A program made the translations under genes and the position numbers. Shown here one piece after another: positions 50,383 to 60,500 of a stretch of DNA of 64,000 nt. A model generated the notes under the pieces. That model did not search any database, was not told the origin of the DNA, and was given only the letters and a program-made list of their open reading frames with translations. The stretch comes from Massalongia carnosa (lineage: Eukaryota), in the NCBI GenBank assembly GCA_965645245.1, contig OZ287071.1:1364001-1428000 (forward strand), read 5' to 3'. Within the stretch, counting starts at the first letter, position 1, and the number at the start of each line of letters is the position of its first letter.

Positions 50383-50943
50383 GTTCTTGGAGGACGTTTG
50401 AGATATACTTGAATTGCCAGAGCAGGTTAGATAGAGCACTTGGCCCACTCTCTTTGCAGGCGTGTTGATAATAGCAAGTCTAGAAACAAATAGAGAAGGA
50501 GAAGTACCCCGTCCAAACTGATTTAGGTACTATCTACAGAGCAAGGTTGTGATGGAAAGCGAGAAGCTGGATCACGATCACTTGGTGGATGACGCAAGTT
50601 GTATGGGGATGTGGCTGCGTGGGGTGGCTTCCCCGGTTTCATACCTTGTAGCTACTTAGGTACCTAGTCCTGGCAGGCTGGAGACTAAATTATTAATGGC
50701 CTAGTCAAGCCGGAAAGGGATCGATTTCAGGCGTCCTCCTGCATGAACGTCAAAACATCATGCCTGAGATTTCCAGCCTCTCATTCTTGGCTAGCCATTC
50801 TTGGATCTTGATGCTGAGCTCTCGAAATTTTACCTCGATTCACTAATGGTCCGGGGATGATGACCTTGAAACTCACTTGTCAAGCCAACTTTTGATACCG
50901 AACGACTAAATATAACTCTTTCCGCTCTCCCCGCAAAATTATC

Positions 50944-51327
50944 ATGGCCTGGTTTTCCGGCCCCGGTTCCCCGTCTAGGCACTCTTCTCGGCATTCGTCC
51001 ACCTCGCAATATCGCCGTCGCCCACGAGATGGCTACATCAAGGGCATCATGCATCAGATCAAACGCATCATGCGCGATCTCTACGGCTACGCCCGTCGCC
51101 ATCCGCTCAAAGTCTTCATGCTAGTGGTAATGCCCTTGCTCACGGGTGGGGCGTTGCACAATGTCCTTAAAAAACTCGGCATACGGCTACCCGCCACCAT
51201 GTCTGGAGCGATGAGAAGTTTTGGAGATTCACGAGGCGGGTTTGGAGAGCGCCGCGGGGGTTTGGGGGATCTTGGTGGAGGCGGAGGAATTCAAAGCATC
51301 ATGAAGATTGCTCAGATGTTCATTTAA
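50944..51327 (+). CDS. Small fungal hypothetical protein with one hydrophobic segment and a Gly-rich tail
   Basis: RRRPRDGYI...YARRHPLKVFMLVVMPLLTGGAL...LGIRLP...MKIAQMFI. Confidence 0.75.
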   Translation: MAWFSGPGSPSRHSSRHSSTSQYRRRPRDGYIKGIMHQIKRIMRDLYGYARRHPLKVFMLVVMPLLTGGALHNVLKKLGIRLPATMSGAMRSFGDSRGGFGERRGGLGDLGGGGGIQSIMKIAQMFI

Positions 51328-51849
51328 GTCTGTGGCATATTATGAGAGGAAAATAGGTATGTGAGATGGTGTTTATCTAGGGAAAGTCTACTACTAATTT
51401 CCTATCAGGTTGGGGTCTCAACGAGCTATCGATATATAGAGTAGTCGCTTCAGCGTACGGTTGATTACAACTCACCCGGCTGGTGGTGTACTTCTTTCCA
51501 TCACTTGGGATAATCTTCTTTACGGTTGCATGCATGTTACTCATTCTATTTTATACGGTCATGCGGATTTATTCTTATGATCACTCATGTTGACCAACTG
51601 CCTGTTTCGATAGGCTCTGCTCATTGTATATTTGTAAACTACTTGATGCCTAATGGATGGCGAGTAAGGCTTGCACCCTTACAGCCCACCATCTTCATTT
51701 ATCGCGGAAAAATAATTAGTTGATTATATCGAGCAGCGGCTCTACTTTACATAATGGTAAGAGAGGACGGTTTCGAAAAAATCTAGTCATTCCAGATTGG
51801 TTGTGTGCCAGCCAAAATCTTCCAAAAACCAGCATCTGATCTATACCAT

Positions 51850-53158
51850 TCATGGGCTTCGCCCATTCCGCTTTCCGCGTTTTCGTGGTTGCCCATCTAT
51901 TTCGCGCAATGTATCAGCAACAAAATCTTCATTCTCGCTTCTACTCCCCTCCCCCAGTTCGTTACCCTCGACTTCCATCCTTTTCCCAAGTACACGGCTT
52001 CGTATGATGTCATATATCCATATAGGTAGTCGTACCAATATTGTCTTCCGTATCGTAGGCTTTGATATCTCATCCGGATCCAAAAGATATTCGCATTTCT
52101 CGCCGTTCTCGTCCTCCTCCTCTAAGAAAACGTTTCCGACCGAGTCTACTATCAGTACCTTTCCATTTTCTGCTTGGACTCTTTTCTTTGGTCCCTGAGG
52201 ACCGACATCAAATTCCGGCTCCAGAGTATTGGTGCTACCGCTTTCACGCGCTGCCCTAGGTTTCTTCTTATCCTTCTCCTTCTTGCCCTCCTTCAGTTGA
52301 AGACGTTTCTGCCTGCGGTTAAGCATTGTAGCACCTTCATCTTGCGCGGAAACAGGAGGTACTGCAATACCTGCACCGTCAATTCCTGGGATTCCTTTCA
52401 CCCCTGATTCGTCGCCCCATGCTGCTCGTCTTGCATAACGGATGTACCGCTCCACAAATCCTCTCTGCCTTTTCCAGCTCAAGTACATAGCTCCATAGTG
52501 CACGAGCCCGCCACCGATGACGAATAGCCCTACAAGGACAGAGCCCAGACCAGGACGGTATCGAGCATAATAGTAGCCTGTGCCTTTCCACTTGGGGAAC
52601 CCATTACTCAGGAAGTGATCGTACCGTTCCCTACCTGGGCCTTTCAGAATAGAAGCAATGATGGCTAACCGGGCGTAGCGCTCGCTAGCCTTCTTCACTG
52701 CATCTCGCACCTCATTTTCCGTCGGGCCTTTGCTCACATGCACCCCTGGCTTCTTCTTCTGCCCAAACTTTGACGTGGGGGTTGCCTTTGCTTTCGAAGC
52801 AGCCAAAGACTGCTTCACCTTATCCGGATGAATGGTCCTCGATTTCTTCCTGTACGCCTTGCTAATATCATCTTGCGACGCAGAGGATTTCACGCCCAAA
52901 TAATCTGAGATACTATTAGTATGAATGCTTTACCTTCCATACAGAAAGGCATACCATAAAATGTGACCTCTTCCCCTTCAGCAGCTATTATTTCGTCACG
53001 TAACCTGAAGATTTCATGATCTGGATGAAAATCCGATTATTAGTTTTGAGCCAACGGTGATGTGGACAGCCGTTGACAAGCACACCTTCTTTGCTCCAGC
53101 CAGCTACTAGTACTAGGACCCAAGCCCCTAAAAACAGCGCAGGCAATGACAACTTCAT
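51850..53158 (-). CDS. ER membrane J-domain protein (Erj5-like)
   Basis: Signal peptide then WSKE|DHEIFRL, HPDK, RERYDHFLSNGFPKWKGTGYYYARYRPGLGSVL transmembrane segment. Confidence 0.88.
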
Positions 53159-53797
53159 CGTTCGTGCATATGTGGGCTTAAGTATGATAATAAATTGGGA
53201 TGGCGAAGCAAGATTTCCCCTCGTTAGTGCCCCTTTGGAACGTGGTCCCAATGGCACATCCCTGTAGGAAGGAAAGCGACGCTACAACAACTCTTAACAA
53301 AACTCGATACTTCTGGTATCAGGGCAGACGCCTTGTCAGATCATTTCTGGGTATATTATGTCCAAGGGAAGCCTTGTCTTGCCATGCTTTGGCCTTTGGA
53401 AGTAGAACTTCTCACTCGAAGGGCGGGACAGAAAATGGCCCGAATCGAGTTCTACTCCCTACTCTAAGCCTGATCTGGCCTTCCTTGCGAGCAAAAGACG
53501 TTATATATCTACAAGTCTTCCACTGCCTGCCAACCAATCTGTTCAACCCCGACTAACTGACCCGTTTCTCCTGCTCAAACCTCTTCTCCTATACACTGTG
53601 TACGTAAACCATCAACGCGGCCTCATTTATCGTATCCTCTGCTGCCTATTACGCCCGTTGTTTAAAAGGTCGCCTAAAGTCTCTGAAGCTGACAGATTAC
53701 TCAACTCACTATCGTTTCTCGAAATCACAGTCGTCACATTCTTAAATACTTTCTATAAGGCTTCCTTCCTTTCAAAACCATACTTCACTCCTCAACC

Positions 53798-54328
53798 ATG
53801 GCACGTATTCAGGTTCCTCTTGAGGCCTTGACGTCTCGCCTCAATCTAGGATCTAGGTTTGAGAGCGTGCGTTCACAGTCGATCACTGCTAGATTTGCCA
53901 ACCTTAAGCCAATTTCCGAGTTTCTAGATCTTAAACGTCTTTCGAAGCCTGCCAATTTTGCTGAAGTCCAAAGCCGGGTGAATTACAACCTGGGATACTT
54001 TTCGAGTAATTATGTTGCTGTGGCTATTATGTTGGGGATATACAGCCTACTGACGAATATGGCGCTACTGTTTGACATTTTCTTTGTCGGTGCTGGGCTT
54101 TTTGCAATTAAGAAACTGGACGGCCGTGACCTTGAGCTTGGCTTCGCGCGTGCAACAACCTCACAGCTCTACACTGGGCTGGTTGTTATCGCGGTACCAC
54201 TGTTTATATATGCGTCACCTATCTCAACAGCACTGTGGCTGGTTGGGGCCACTGGAGTGAGCATCTTGGGACATGCGTCGCTTATGGACAAACCAATCGA
54301 TACAGCTTTTTCCGAGGAGGCGGTCTAG
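53798..54328 (+). CDS. YIP3: PRA1-family prenylated Rab acceptor Yip3
   Basis: KPISEFLDLKRLSKPANFAEVQSRVNYNLGYFSSNY, hydrophobic hairpins, GHASLMDKPIDTAFSEEAV*. Confidence 0.93.
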   Translation: MARIQVPLEALTSRLNLGSRFESVRSQSITARFANLKPISEFLDLKRLSKPANFAEVQSRVNYNLGYFSSNYVAVAIMLGIYSLLTNMALLFDIFFVGAGLFAIKKLDGRDLELGFARATTSQLYTGLVVIAVPLFIYASPISTALWLVGATGVSILGHASLMDKPIDTAFSEEAV

Positions 54329-54354
54329 GTGGTCGGCCGCGAACTCCACACGAT

Positions 54355-55614
54355 ATGCCCTTATGGGGAAGACCATCAGGGGCTCGCAAGGGGATGAAGG
54401 AGAAGGGCCGAAATAGGAAAACCAGGCAATGGGAAGAGTCAAGACGTTTTGAAGAGATTGACAGTGATGGTGACGATGAGCAAGGGGTTGTTTTAGACAG
54501 CTCATTTATGGGTGACGAACTATATTTTACCGGTGCTGACTTGGGATCTCGTCCACAAATTCGCCGGTCGCATGGTTATGATGAATTGTTTGGATCTTCG
54601 GAGGAGGAGCAAGGTTTGGATGATGACAGTTCTGGGGGTACAGTGCAGGTGGCATTGAGAGACAAACAAGATTTACTGGTTCAGAAGGCGCTGGAGCGGA
54701 TTCGCCGGGCTCAGCAGCTAGGAAGAACGGATGTTGAGCTTACACAACCTGAAATCGACGCTCTGACACGTAAGAGGCGAAAAGATGAAGCTGCCCGTAA
54801 AGCTGGAGTTCGGAGCTCCGAAGTTGCCAAGCGCCGCCAGAGTAGTGGGCAATTAAAAGAGGCATTAAGAGACCAAAGATCAAGCAACAGGAGAATCAAA
54901 ACCCCAATTTCTCATTTCGGCGGCCCGCCCCCCAGTCCCAAACAGACCACACCACCGGGTATCGTCATTTTAGGACCTGATGGCAATCCATCCTATCAAG
55001 CCTTTGAGCATTATCCAACTATTGCTGTGGAACCTTATAGTAGACCCTCACGCTCTGGATCACAATCAGCTAGCTCACATAGCCAGCTAAAGTCGACTCC
55101 CCCCTTGACGTCAAGCCAGTTTCGACCCCCCAAAGCAAGATACTTTTCGGTCCCAGAGGCCACTCGGCCATCATCAATGTATCCAACGAACCCTCAGTCT
55201 CATCGTCTACCGGATGATCCCAACTGGCACCCTCGTCCTAGATCAGCTTCATCTACTCCATCATATGCAGCCAGAACCGTTCAGGACCAGACTTATTTAC
55301 CTTCCTTACCTTACAAGCACTCCCAGCATGCTCAAGCCAGGAGAAATGTATCTAGGCCACCAGAATCGCAGTATATTCGCTCAAGGAAAAAGAACCCTCA
55401 ACCAATGCACTTTGCAGCAACATCTGAGCCGTCCCTCCATTTGGAGCGCCCTTCTCAGAGGCTACAAGAATACAGCAGAAGCAGCGATGACGCTGACGAC
55501 GACAATGGAGATTACGGTGTGGAGGTTGATGTGGGACCCTACGGTCAAAGCTATGGGGTTAAAATTAGGCCTGAGGAATTTGCAAGTGGCAGAATAAAAA
55601 GGGATGACCAGTAG
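54355..55614 (+). CDS. Low-complexity protein ORF whose frame overlaps the YIP3 3' end (-1 frame)
   Basis: Frame is open from at least 54235; first ATG is 26 nt after the YIP3 stop; motifs LVQKALERIRRAQQLG...VELTQPEIDAL and LPDDPNWHPRPRSASS. Confidence 0.8.
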   Translation: MPLWGRPSGARKGMKEKGRNRKTRQWEESRRFEEIDSDGDDEQGVVLDSSFMGDELYFTGADLGSRPQIRRSHGYDELFGSSEEEQGLDDDSSGGTVQVALRDKQDLLVQKALERIRRAQQLGRTDVELTQPEIDALTRKRRKDEAARKAGVRSSEVAKRRQSSGQLKEALRDQRSSNRRIKTPISHFGGPPPSPKQTTPPGIVILGPDGNPSYQAFEHYPTIAVEPYSRPSRSGSQSASSHSQLKSTPPLTSSQFRPPKARYFSVPEATRPSSMYPTNPQSHRLPDDPNWHPRPRSASSTPSYAARTVQDQTYLPSLPYKHSQHAQARRNVSRPPESQYIRSRKKNPQPMHFAATSEPSLHLERPSQRLQEYSRSSDDADDDNGDYGVEVDVGPYGQSYGVKIRPEEFASGRIKRDDQ

Positions 55615-55923
55615 TTAATGTGAATTCTTAAACAGTTCTGTGTGTTTCATATCTGGTGGTTAGGTATCTCTAAATTGCACATGCCGGTGGCTTCTATTTC
55701 CAAACATCGGTTGTTGGGCCTTATCTACAAAACATAGATTTCATGTATTCATCGGTGAAGCTAAAACCCCCAGTTTAGATGTGTATTTTGACTTAACCCC
55801 CATTCACTTGATAAGCATAATAAGAAATAAGATTCAGATCAGCGTATTGTTAGACGGCCTCCTTGACGAACAAACACAGATGACCTTCGAATGCTTATTG
55901 ACATCTCCATCCATGTACAAAAA

Positions 55924-57043
55924 CTACCTCTCAACCAGGTTCTCTATGATTTTGTCCTGCATTGCCTTGCTCACGCCAATACGAATCAAATAACGTGGAA
56001 CGCTACCGTATGTGTTAACAATGTAATCGTAGATCTCAGCGACAAAGGTTGGAGGGCAGCCAGCAAAATCCTCAGTGAGTCCGAGCTCGCCAATCTCTAA
56101 CATGCGCGACTCCTTTTCAGGCAACAGCTCCCTTTCGCTTGCTAGGTAGTCTGCGGAGATGGCCTGGAGCGGCGCGTTCACGAGGAGCAACAGCAGCATA
56201 ATTGTCAGCCCCGTGCGGTCTTTCCCCTGCGTGCAATGGACAAGAAGCGGGTAATTCCTCGCGTCCGCCAGGAATTCGAATATCTCGCGGATCTCGTCTC
56301 GAGCGTGATCAATGGAGTCTTTCCCCAATCCGATCAGGCCGCGGGGTTGCATGACTTCACGGCCCAGTATGCTAATTGCCTCAGTCCTGTAGCCCATGAC
56401 CATCAATCTGATAAGCTCCCTAACATATGGTAAGAATTTGAGGGAGGGGAAAATAGGGGTTACTGGGGGGTAGAGACGCTAGACTAGCCCATTTCAGTCG
56501 CCATAGCAAGGCCCGTTCGAACGATTTGCCATTTAGGTTAATTTCGCGATATTCTATATCCGGAATCTTGAGAGACGCCGCTGTGGTTTCGTTTGATTGT
56601 AGGACTGCTGCCGAACTTGGAACGCTAGCACCGCGCTTTTGGGCCTGTTTGATATGTTCGGTCCTGAGGACATCTCAGTATATGAAAAGGTTCATCGTCA
56701 GGTCTGCGAAAGGGTACTTGGAGCGAAGATCTATAATGCTGGCAGTCTGATAACTACTCCGTATCTGTTCACGTTCTTCGGCTGATGCATCGTCAGGCTG
56801 ATCCCATTAGTCGAGTTTAGTCGAATGCTGGAAAGAGATCGTGCCCTTGCGCTCCGGAATAGCCGTCCTTCGCGTAAGACGCTTTCACACAGGGCGTTAG
56901 GCTCAATGTTGGCACTTTTGCACAACAACGTGAACTCACACCGATGCCTGAATGCTGTTTATGGTCTGACCCACATCGCGAAAGTTGAGAATTGTCTTGA
57001 AAGGGCTGCTAGGAATGAGATCAACATCACTAGACGATGTCAT
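55924..57043 (-). CDS. Tyrosine/serine phosphatase (Y_phosphatase3-like)
   Basis: ILNFRDVG, LFRSAR, IIDLRS, P-loop HCTQGKDRTG, ISADYLASE. Confidence 0.88.
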
Positions 57044-57568
57044 GGTTTGGGAATTGGGTATGTTTTTGGATGGAGGAAAGATTACAGAATCTGGAAGACC
57101 AGTGGCTGCAGAGAGATATTTGACCAATCACTCTAGATTGTAGTGCCACTGAAAGGGAAAGAACAACACGACTGCATGTAATTGAGAGTTATGCTAGGGA
57201 GATAGCGCTCTGGTTGATGTACTTTTCTATCGTAGTAAAGGGGAAATTCCTAAGAAAAGAAAAGTACAGAGTATTTGCCTATGGCCTTTCGATTCGCCGT
57301 CGATGAAGAGCTGGACTCCTCAAGATACACGGGACGATAGCAAGGGCCGACGAGCCGGTTCGTAACGCCAGCTACGTCATCTTTGGCTTTGTGGACGTTT
57401 ACCATGTTGGGCGTGCAATAACACGACACGTTACGATTGAATAACTACTCTTGGAACCTTTGATTTTCTTCAAGACTGGCTCGGGGTGTCCATATTCTAG
57501 TGTCATAGTTTTACGTGCTTCCAAAACATTGACTAGTTGATAACGAAGCTTAACGGCTAAGTCGTATA

Positions 57569-60500
57569 ATGTCTGCGTCCAGGTCTCCGAAGCTTGGGGA
57601 TCAGGGTAAGCCAGAAGTCTTCTCGTAATACTTGTTGTGTTCCTAAGCTGATGTTTGATAGCCACGACCGCCGCACTGTTTGCGACGAGAGCAGGAAAAG
57701 GTGGTCAATCCCAAAACACGTATCCTCTGGATGATGATAACAAACTGTCTTCCGCAGGTAAGCGCAGTATATTCTGAATGCCTATTCATCCAGGCGCTCA
57801 TAGTCTTGAATCAGGTGCGGCAACATCACTCAAATACGCAAGTCCACGCGATTTGCCATCGTACCCATCCGCTGGCCTCCCTAATTTAGAATCGTCTGCT
57901 GGAGCAGCTGCAAGTTTGGCCAATGCTAATAAAAAGACTTTCGAGCATTGGAAGCCGGATCCTTCGGCTTCGGCGAATAAGGCCGCTAATCTGGCAAAGG
58001 ATTTCAAAGCTCCTCCCTTGTGGCATCCCGATCCTTCGGACTCAGCGAACAAAGCGGCCAATCTAGCGAAAGATTATAAGGCTCCCCCGCTGTGGCATCC
58101 AGACTCGAGCGCGGCGGGGTCCAAAGCTGCCGTCATCGCAGCGAAGGATGGTGGGAACGTTCAGGTATGGCACCCTGTGGCTACGCAGGCCGGTAGCTCA
58201 GCAGCAGGACAAGCCATGCGTGTTAAAGGATTGAAGCCCCAAGGTGATAATGGCCACACCGCAGAAGGTAGCAGGAAAGCATTAATAGCCGCCACAGATG
58301 CAATGTCTAGTGGCAGGAAACGGGCTGGATCTTCTCCTGTGGTGAAGAGCAACTATCCAGACTCTGAAAACTCGGCTGCGAATGCTCTAAGCGCTGCTAA
58401 TTTTGCGAACAAGCCATACGTAAGAGTTGGCCAGGCTAAAACAAATATTCTTGGGGCTTCCACATCTTCGATAGATGCAGCGAGGATACATAACGCGGCC
58501 GTAACAAACTTATCACGCGAAATGTATACTTCAAATCCTCCGGTGGCACCAGAAACAGAGGAGAAGAACAGGCAAGCGGGATTGCGTGCTGCTGCTGTTT
58601 CGATGGCGAAACAGATGTACAGTATACAACAAAAGGCCATTGAACAAGCTACACGCGGCGACAAATCGGACAGCCAATATGCTGCCAATAGTGTTCATCA
58701 TCGTAAGGCATCAATCTCCTCAGCAGAAGATTCTTATCAACAGCCACCTCAATATATGAACCTTCAAGAAGCCGCGCAGAAGTTGGCAGCGGAGCGCCTC
58801 GCTAAGCTTCACGATGAGCACGCAGAATATAGAAGTTATTATGGAGCAACCACTCCCCCCCAATCACGACTTTCGCTACGAGGTCGTCAAAGACGACGTG
58901 CCTCAAGCGATGGGCCAATAAATGAATCTTCAGATAGTCGTTTCAAACAGAGTCGGCCAGAGGCGTCCATTTCAAATAGCCAAGTGGCACAAAATGATAT
59001 TACCAGACGTCAGAAGGATAGAGACTCGCTTATGGCAGCTGCCCAACGCAATGTGAGAGCCAGTATGCATGGTATCGATGAGAAAGTATTTGCCGAGACC
59101 GGAAAGGCGTCACCCGCGATGATGCAGAGTTGGGAAGCCAAGGCTCGCGCTCGCGCAGAGGCGGACAGCAAAGCAAGGATGGTTAATCATGGGATGGTGC
59201 ATATTGGTGCAGGAAAGTACCTTGACCAGTCAGAAATCGACGCCATTGCAGCACAACGAGTGCAGCCCACGTTGAATGAAATATATGCAAATGCAGAGAA
59301 GCAAAGAGCTCGAGATGAGCAGGTACGGCTTGAAGATCAAGAACGACACGAGTTTGCAGCAGCCAAGGTTCAAGATGACAAGGAACGTAGTCTCAAGACT
59401 AAAGAAGAATGGAAACGCTTTAGAGGTATAGATCGACTCTAAAATCTTACGAGTTTTTTGGTGTGCTAACTATATGTAGAAGAAGAGAAACAAGCGGCAA
59501 AAGCAAAGAAGGAGGAGGAAAACGCAAGAAAGATAGAAGACAAGCGTCTAAAGGATGAACAGAAGCGGAAGCCCAAAGAGGTAGTAGGAAGCCTCGGAGC
59601 CCCTATTCAAGCCTCGGATATTCCTGCACTTGGTCCCATTCCCAGCCTTGAGCCAATTTCTGCTGAGGAACATAGATACTCATCGGAGTCTTTACATTCA
59701 AGAGCGTCTCCAGGGAGACTTGCGAACGAACCTACGAGCCATGAATCTATGACTAAAGTATACGAGGAAGTTAGGATGAACGATGCAACGGAACCTGATT
59801 CTCTTGAAAGGCCTTCAAGAGAATCCAGCGAACTTGAGCGTGTACTTGCAGAGGAGGTAGTCCACTTTGGTTCAGACTTTGAAGAACATAACAAGCTGGA
59901 GCTGATATCTTCAGAGGACTCCTTCTCGGCCCAAGCAGTTTCTCCAACAGTAGTCAATCCTGAACCAACCAATGCTGAGGAAATGCAACACACTCCGGCT
60001 AAAGGCCTTGAAAATGCCGAATTGATTGCAGCGCGTGTGCTCTCTTCGCCGGTAGAGCCAGATACGTCAATCACAGAAGAAAATCCTTCAATAGCGCTTC
60101 CCGATAAAACAATGGTCAGCAAGCCCAGTACTGCATCGATGAAGATCGGGAAAGAGCTATCTACCCCGGGGTTACACATCGATTCAATCGGTGTCCGGAG
60201 TGCCCCTACAGCCACTACAGAAACCACAATCAGTGGCCCATCCACGGATCCCAAATCCCCAAAGGGTGAATACAAAGTTTCCTCGTGGCTCAAATCGACG
60301 TTCTTACGTCGTGCAAGCAAACCCGTGAAGCCAGATGACCTCGATCCTTCTGAAAATAACACTTCTGCTATTGCCTCAGGAGCTGGTAATGCTCCTGATG
60401 TGGAGAGCGCCGAGAAGGGGAAGAATGGTATTCGCAACGGGAAAATAACACATGACGACCGAACTGTCGCAGGTGATGATGAGCCAGTTAAGAAGCAGCC

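Follow-up and report, generated by a model that had tools for sequence, protein, structure and literature searches.

Massalongia carnosa carries the gene YIP3/PRA1, encoding a prenylated Rab acceptor, on a 64,000-nucleotide (nt) stretch that we analyzed whole (the window; GenBank assembly GCA_965645245.1, contig OZ287071.1, positions 1,364,001 to 1,428,000 of the forward strand). All coordinates below count from the first letter of the window. The short YIP3 open reading frame (ORF1) overlaps a long second frame (ORF2) in the -1 phase. We read this locus as an orthologue of the Pezizomycotina YIP3/PRA1 gene that is decoded with a programmed -1 ribosomal frameshift, and give this reading a probability of about 0.88. 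The frameshift feature is real and is already known as a conserved property of YIP3 in Pezizomycotina. The window is one more instance, very probably from a lichen-forming lineage. Every added orthologue is further confirmation of the deep conservation of the signal.

Anatomy of the YIP3 locus

The following features define the locus:

53798–54328, + strand: ORF1, YIP3/PRA1 (prenylated Rab acceptor), the short zero-frame product; from translation and Pfam.
54307–54313, + strand: slip site U UUU UCC, a non-canonical heptamer, codons 171 (Phe) and 172 (Ser); from the sequence and its recurrence in related loci.
54310–55614, + strand: ORF2, the -1-frame extension, 434 codons plus TAG; from ORF translation, homologues and a structure model.
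54316–54347, + strand: stem 1 with a 3-nt bulge; from the fold and from pairing in 16 distinct sequences.

ORF1 encodes 176 amino acids (aa), from ATG 53798 to TAG 54326–54328, and its 3' end reads GCT TTT TCC GAG GAG GCG GTC TAG. The translation matched the Pfam family PRA1 (PF03208) with an E value of 1.2e-36 and 125.8 bits (cut-off 30.1), over profile positions 2–142 of 143. Compared with the ORF1 proteins of 29 related loci (see below), it was 63.6–89.8% identical. The frame of ORF2 is open from 54136 to 55614. Codons of ORF1 start at 2 mod 3 and those of ORF2 at 1 mod 3, hence the -1 phase. There are 434 codons from TTC 54310 to the last sense codon at 55611, and a slip at codon 171 (TTT) would produce a 605-aa fusion of ORF1 codons 1–171 and ORF2. 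The Pfam search of ORF2 matched no family. Homologues of ORF2 were found among proteins of similar length (228 at E ≤ 1e-3), the best match having 59% identity. The named proteins in the best 120 of the 228 were all from lichen-forming fungi, which makes a lecanoromycete-like ascomycete the very probable source of the window.

The heptamer begins with a run of five T (T5, 54307–54311) and is separated from stem 1 by a spacer of 2 nt. Stem 1 has a 5' arm GGAGGCGGUC (54316–54325) and a 3' arm formed by GGCCGC (54335–54340), the bulge GAA (54341–54343) and CUCC (54344–54347). Its loop has 9 nt, UAGGUGGUC (54326–54334), and contains the ORF1 stop UAG at 54326–54328. The upper, GC-rich helix of 6 base pairs (bp) lies 6 nt from the heptamer. 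A first-pass annotation of the window had listed the end of ORF1, the T5 run, the overlapping -1 frame, its 434 codons and the 26-nt gap between the stop and the next ATG, all of which are in the sequence. It had also drawn the stem-loop (GGAG-GCGGTC with GGCCGC-gaa-CTCC, the stop in the loop, the inner stem 6 nt off), and the minimum-free-energy fold of 54307–54400 reproduced stem 1 exactly in this form. The fold energy of this 94-nt piece was unremarkable (z = -0.67), 47 of 200 shuffles folding as well or better. With an ordinary single-sequence fold energy, the case beyond chance rests on the comparison with other loci.

Conservation of the junction

Thirty ORF2 homologues, picked from the 120 listed, were aligned, and the alignment was used to scan metagenome contigs. 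The three peptide patterns used for the scan all lie in the helical region of ORF2 (54640–54780), far from the junction. The patterns hit at least 596 stretches, and 29 of the matches listed proved to be relatives. One further locus, L030, came from the pattern scan of prokaryote genome contigs. The motif scan of viral contigs gave 0 matches. Loci were placed by exact or 90% cluster look-up of the ORF1 protein:

L022: Penicillium; ORF1 identical to a P. arizonense protein.
L024 and L027: ORF1 clusters with Knufia.
L028: ORF1 clusters with Exophiala and Lithohypha.
L030: Lichina confinis by ORF1.
L012 and L019: ORF1 clusters with Pleopsidium.
L007: ORF1 clusters with Pseudevernia.

The classes covered by the sample are the Lecanoromycetes, the Eurotiomycetes (Penicillium; Knufia and Exophiala groups) and the Lichinomycetes.

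YIP3 was found directly upstream of ORF2, and in the same -1 relation to it, in 29 of the 29 confirmed loci. TTTTTCC occupied an unchanged position in the window and in each of the 29 loci; these 30 sequences gave 17 distinct 136-nt junctions. Conservation at the RNA level is very strong. Among 21 distinct 375-nt stretches, 40 of the 42 junction columns at 54306–54347 were invariant. Upstream of the T run, only 3 of 93 third-codon positions of ORF1 were invariant in the same stretches. Of the two variable junction columns, one is the final base of the bulge and the other a G-to-A change by which a U-G pair becomes U-A. The ten pairs of stem 1 were paired in 160 of 160 pair-by-sequence cells (16 distinct sequences), with this U-G to U-A as the one one-sided change.

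Synonymous sites were assessed at columns where all 24 distinct sequences shared one degenerate amino acid. Between 54313 and 54375 a single codon was used at 13 of 15 such columns. The frozen codons included, 3' of stem 1, CCC (54358), GGA (54367), AGA (54370) and CCA (54373), and GGA AGA CCA (54367–54375) was identical in 24/24 distinct sequences. In the conserved helix at 54676–54775, four to six different codons were used at all 12 shared-amino-acid columns. The frozen codon usage at 54313–54375 indicates an RNA-level constraint that extends to at least 54375. This synonymous-site constraint, seen across at least three fungal classes, is possibly new.

From the slip site to the codon at 54355, the -1 frame was open and identical in all 30 sequences. 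A stop closed it 18 nt before the T run in 4 of the 29 loci (L007, L012, L018 and L022), so the frame change falls within about 40 nt that include the heptamer. The -1-frame peptide SFFRGGGLGGRPRTP was present in 7 of the 30 aligned homologues, those whose gene calls begin upstream. A complete ORF2, open over 386–476 codons, was present in 25 of the 29 loci, and in three others it runs off the contig.

The first-pass annotation had suggested testing its proposal by the conservation of TTTTTCC, of the relative frame, of the hairpin and of synonymous sites. The heptamer, the phase (which does not vary among the orthologues) and the synonymous sites bore it out. For the hairpin, the pairing held throughout; two-sided covariation was absent from our own sample, and one compensatory pair appeared against the Podospora sequence described in the next section.

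Two loci deserve separate mention. In L010 (1094–2035) ORF2 ends after 334 codons, the junction being identical to that of L008 and L009 (425 codons). This early end may reflect a premature stop, or else an error of assembly. L030 (1439–2037, - strand) is a complete fungal YIP3 frameshift locus on a 226-kb contig filed as a ‘Cyclobacteriaceae bacterium’ metagenome-assembled genome (MAG). Its ORF1 is identical to a protein from a MAG of the lichen fungus Lichina confinis, and the contig is probably eukaryotic and mis-binned into a bacterial genome.

Comparison with known frameshift signals

A programmed -1 frameshift has been published for PaYIP3 (Pa_1_8470) of Podospora anserina (Malagnac et al. 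2013, PLoS One 8:e73772, PMC3777964). The first-pass annotation had mentioned a frameshift candidate at this orthologue and suggested that it may be conserved; the paper indeed reports it as conserved in Pezizomycotina. Besides this paper we found nothing relevant in the literature on YIP3 frameshifting. In Podospora, one mRNA spans the 5' YIP3 ORF and a longer, Pezizomycotina-specific 3' ORF in the -1 frame, and twelve complementary DNAs (cDNAs) were the same as the genome sequence at the site (PMC3777964). A fusion-size protein tagged with green fluorescent protein (GFP) was produced from the wild-type allele, as seen by anti-GFP western blot (PMC3777964). The slip sequence proposed there is U UUU UCC at codon 170, with a stem-loop, possibly a pseudoknot, 2 nt downstream and a conserved 3-nt bulge in stem 1 (PMC3777964). 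Apart from Ascosphaera apis and Arthrobotrys oligospora, every member of the Pezizomycotina examined kept the arrangement; the Capnodiales and Ophiostomatales had a +1 arrangement instead (PMC3777964). YIP3 is described as the first cellular non-retroelement eukaryotic gene that lengthens its protein by -1 frameshifting (PMC3777964). The long form was not detected in the fruiting-body centrum, and the authors suggest that the tail may act as a degradation signal (PMC3777964). The main text of the paper names neither fungal classes nor lichens (PMC3777964).

The window shares with PaYIP3 the PRA1/YIP3 gene, the -1 phase, U UUU UCC near codon 170 and the 2-nt spacer. It further shares the GC-rich stem 1 with its 3-nt bulge and the stop in the loop, and the long, Pezizomycotina-restricted 3' ORF without a known domain. 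The Podospora sequence compared was the reporter oligonucleotide. By eye, 39 of 43 positions were identical between this oligonucleotide and window 54305–54347. Of the four differences, the spacer and the bulge hold one each, and the other two form a two-sided compensatory change in stem pair 54321:54339, which is C-G in the window and U-A in Podospora. The proposal that one mRNA yields the 176-aa Yip3 and a fusion of about 605 aa is therefore supported, by the match with the Podospora orthologue (PMC3777964) and by the sequence-level features.

The two systems differ in several respects. The closest named relatives here are lichen-forming Lecanoromycetes. The extension of the window has 434 codons and the fusion 605 aa, compared with 61.6 kDa in Podospora (PMC3777964), and an ATG stands just past the stop in the window where the Podospora oligonucleotide has TCG. 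The single unspliced mRNA, the fusion protein and the ~1% frameshifting belong to the Podospora work alone (PMC3777964). It is from Podospora that we infer frameshifting in this organism.

Canonical viral -1 signals, for example that of infectious bronchitis virus (IBV), consist of an X XXY YYZ heptamer, a 5–9 nt spacer and an H-type pseudoknot. As in these signals, a slip site in the window is followed by a GC-rich stem 1 of ~10–11 bp, and an H-type pseudoknot is possible, in which loop 1 would have 2 nt and loop 3 would be long. The Podospora authors called the base of stem 1 reminiscent of IBV (PMC3777964). Unlike these signals, the site in the window departs from the YYZ rule through UCC and has a spacer of 2 nt, and the gene is cellular, neither viral nor retroelement. 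When tested in yeast on the IBV heptamer, the Podospora element lacked the stimulatory effect that the IBV pseudoknot has (PMC3777964). The mammalian Edr/PEG10 and Ma3 resemble YIP3 as cellular genes that extend a protein by -1 frameshifting (cited in PMC3777964), and the Edr pseudoknot also has a 3-nt bulge (PMC3777964). They differ in their domesticated retroelement origin and in tandem slippage on a canonical heptamer; YIP3 has no retroelement signature (PMC3777964).

Proposed mechanism

In the frameshift reading, most ribosomes would translate ORF1 and stop at UAG 54326, giving the 176-aa Rab-acceptor protein. A minority would slip by -1 on U UUU UCC and read 434 more codons, giving the 605-aa protein. 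The bulged GC-rich stem, which starts 2 nt further on and probably belongs to a pseudoknot, would promote the slip. It may be mainly a slip of the P-site tRNA-Phe from UUU to UUU, and a single P-site slip is also favored in the discussion of the Podospora work (PMC3777964). The A-site UCC could re-pair as UUC only via a G-U in the middle position; a tRNA-Ser(IGA) able to re-pair on UUC through a G-U pair has been considered (PMC3777964). A slip in the P site only predicts the junction AFFRGGG (...DTAFFRGGGLGGR), and tandem slippage predicts AFSRGGG (...DTAFSRGGGLGGR); both products would have 605 aa. With a spacer of only 2 nt, the lower 4 bp of stem 1 would probably be unwound already while the heptamer is decoded. 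The effective barrier may then be the upper 6-bp helix, 6 nt away, perhaps stacked on a second stem (see below).

Points against frameshifting and alternative explanations

Several points weigh against this reading. Frameshifting in a yeast dual reporter was ~1%, compared with 0.3% for the out-of-frame control, and the Podospora deletion was not rescued by the PaYIP3 long form on its own (PMC3777964). The heptamer does not follow X XXY YYZ, as the first-pass annotation had itself stated, and it is separated from the full stem by 2 nt, not 5–9. Two-sided changes numbered 0 in the 17 pairs of our own sample (stem 1 plus the candidate stem 2 below), where the structure is supported by invariance and three one-sided changes. 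A shuffle control of the pairing was uninformative (500 of 500 shuffles equaled the observed value) because the 5' strands never vary. Lastly, the window and 12 of the 29 loci do have an ATG 26 nt past the end of ORF1, and some independent initiation is possible:

54355–54357, + strand: first in-frame ATG of ORF2, not conserved; from the 29-locus comparison.

ORF2 might thus be translated alone from this ATG, by reinitiation, by leaky scanning or from a separate transcript with a promoter inside YIP3, and no fusion would be made. Many gene callers do start the ORF2 protein here. We regard this as unlikely. The codon at 54355 was not ATG in 17 of the 29 loci (TCG in eight, TTG in three, GTG in six), which argues against reinitiation as a general mechanism; reinitiation at this ATG had been the alternative offered by the first-pass annotation. 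In the 17 loci without this ATG, the first in-frame ATG came at codon 29 (three loci) or at codons 77–135 (14 loci) after the T run. For the latter 14, it falls past the conserved WGRPSGAR and DELxFTGADLG. Between the slip site and the 54355 codon, the -1 frame is kept open and identical in 30/30 sequences. In Podospora, the GFP-tagged protein made from the wild-type allele had the size of the fusion (PMC3777964).

A joining of the frames in the RNA itself, whether through a small intron, through RNA editing or through slippage of the polymerase on T5, is very improbable. Predicted introns do fuse PRA1 and the extension in 11 of the best 120 listed homologues (534–589 aa, with PF03208). However, the predicted junctions differed among all five fused proteins that we read (P0033, P0052, P0055, P0057 and P0113), and conserved residues were deleted. 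Three of these five contained the -1-frame peptide FFRGGGLGGRPRTP, and some fused annotations read part of PRA1 in the wrong frame. The fused annotations are gene-model ‘repairs’ with invented introns, not DNA-level fusions. It seems that a recoded gene is being mis-annotated systematically in lichen-fungus genomes, and the 11 ‘repaired’ proteins stand as a warning for annotation. In the window, a GTRNGT donor was present in 0 of 167 in-phase GT..AG pairs (40–400 nt), so no plausible intron joins the frames. A run of five T is short for transcriptional slippage. Unlike an intron, the junction is invariant at 40 of its 42 columns, and none of the twelve Podospora cDNAs departed from the genome sequence there (PMC3777964).

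A frame break caused by an assembly error in the homopolymer, or by decay of a former single ORF into a pseudogene, has no locus-specific support, and the comparison of loci effectively refutes it. Assemblies often contain homopolymer indels, but the identical T5 run and phase recurred in 29/29 independently assembled loci from at least three fungal classes, 25 of them with ORF2 open over the 386–476 codons given above, and contigs of runs X1–X3, which may be the window's own source, each spanned 50500–58000 whole with 0 differences.

Among the sequencing runs listed for this stretch none was of RNA, and the four compared with the window (X1–X4) consisted of DNA-like contigs. In run X4 (fragmentary and of low depth), one contig joined 54878 to 56672 and skipped 1793 nt. 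The joint had non-canonical AT..AC ends and three shared letters. We rejected it as a splice; it is probably a chimeric contig of a related strain.

A candidate second stem

Two partners for the loop of stem 1 were considered, both on the 3' side:

54371–54377, + strand: 3' strand GACCAUC of a candidate pseudoknot stem 2; putative pairing with loop GGUGGUC (54328–54334).
54356–54359, + strand: 3' strand UGCC of an alternative short stem 2; pairs with GGUG (54328–54331) and lies inside the published reporter fragment.

When the 49 nt downstream were searched for the segment that pairs best with the loop, each of the 16 distinct sequences gave 54371–54377, with duplex energies of -8.0 to -13.1 kcal/mol. 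The candidate 7-bp stem 2 was paired in 112 of 112 cells, with two one-sided changes that preserve pairing (G-U to G-C and G-C to G-U). Stem 1 and the 7-bp stem 2 together were paired in 272 of 272 cells over 16 distinct 90-nt sequences, and 14 of their 17 pairs never varied. As a chance control in the window, 2000 shuffles yielded an equally good loop partner 77 times, and of 1702 gene-wide 9-mers 20 had a partner as good. The loop match at 54371–54377 is thus suggestive, not decisive. In the short stem 2 (54328–54332 with 54355–54359), four pairs were kept in 16/16 sequences and the fifth (54332:54355) was unpaired in 11/16, with 86% paired overall. The short and the 7-bp forms are mutually exclusive, and neither had two-sided covariation among the 16 distinct sequences. 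The second hairpin of the minimum-free-energy fold (54357–66 with 54373–83) was rejected as drawn, with 85.6% of cells pairing and A57-U70 broken in 6/16; its outer four pairs survive.

It is possible, though somewhat doubtful, that the functional stimulator is larger than the element tested so far and includes an extended stem 2. The published 59-nt Podospora reporter fragment corresponds to window 54305–54363 and does not include the strand at 54371–54377. This could explain both the 1% efficiency and the failure to stimulate the IBV heptamer. The RNA-level constraint itself does extend past the tested fragment, and it may bear on why the measured efficiency was so low. One extended form would be an IBV-like H-type pseudoknot, with 2 nt in loop 1, 0 nt in loop 2 and 23 nt in loop 3. 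In the other, the loop would make a loop-loop contact with a second, small hairpin, which GCCC/GGGC (54357–60 with 54380–83) would close.

The ORF2 tail and neighboring genes

The structure of ORF2 was modeled with AlphaFold2 from the 30-sequence alignment (P0002, 419 residues). Most of the model was of low confidence, with a mean predicted local distance difference test (pLDDT) score of 52.3 and a pLDDT below 50 in 266 of the 419 residues. A helical hairpin was modeled with confidence (P0002 residues 96–121 and 131–157, pLDDT 85–95; window about 54640–54825), and a small beta hairpin was placed at residues 202–216. The tail is predicted to be long and mostly disordered, with one helical hairpin. 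A near-invariant motif, RRLPDDPNWxPRPRSASS, was observed in ORF2 at about 55219–55242 (P0002 residues 289–296) and in its homologues. Its PRPRSAS part presumably resembles a basophilic kinase site (RxRxxS). The -1 frame is open already 57 codons 5' of the slip site in the window (54136–54306), and 447 nt upstream in L019–L021.

A gene for a DnaJ-domain protein (51853–52929, - strand) is divergent from YIP3, with ~870 nt between the starts. An exon of a tyrosine phosphatase of the Y_phosphatase3 family (55927–56478, - strand) converges on the end of ORF2, ~310 nt off. This layout of neighboring genes fits a single promoter region 5' of YIP3.

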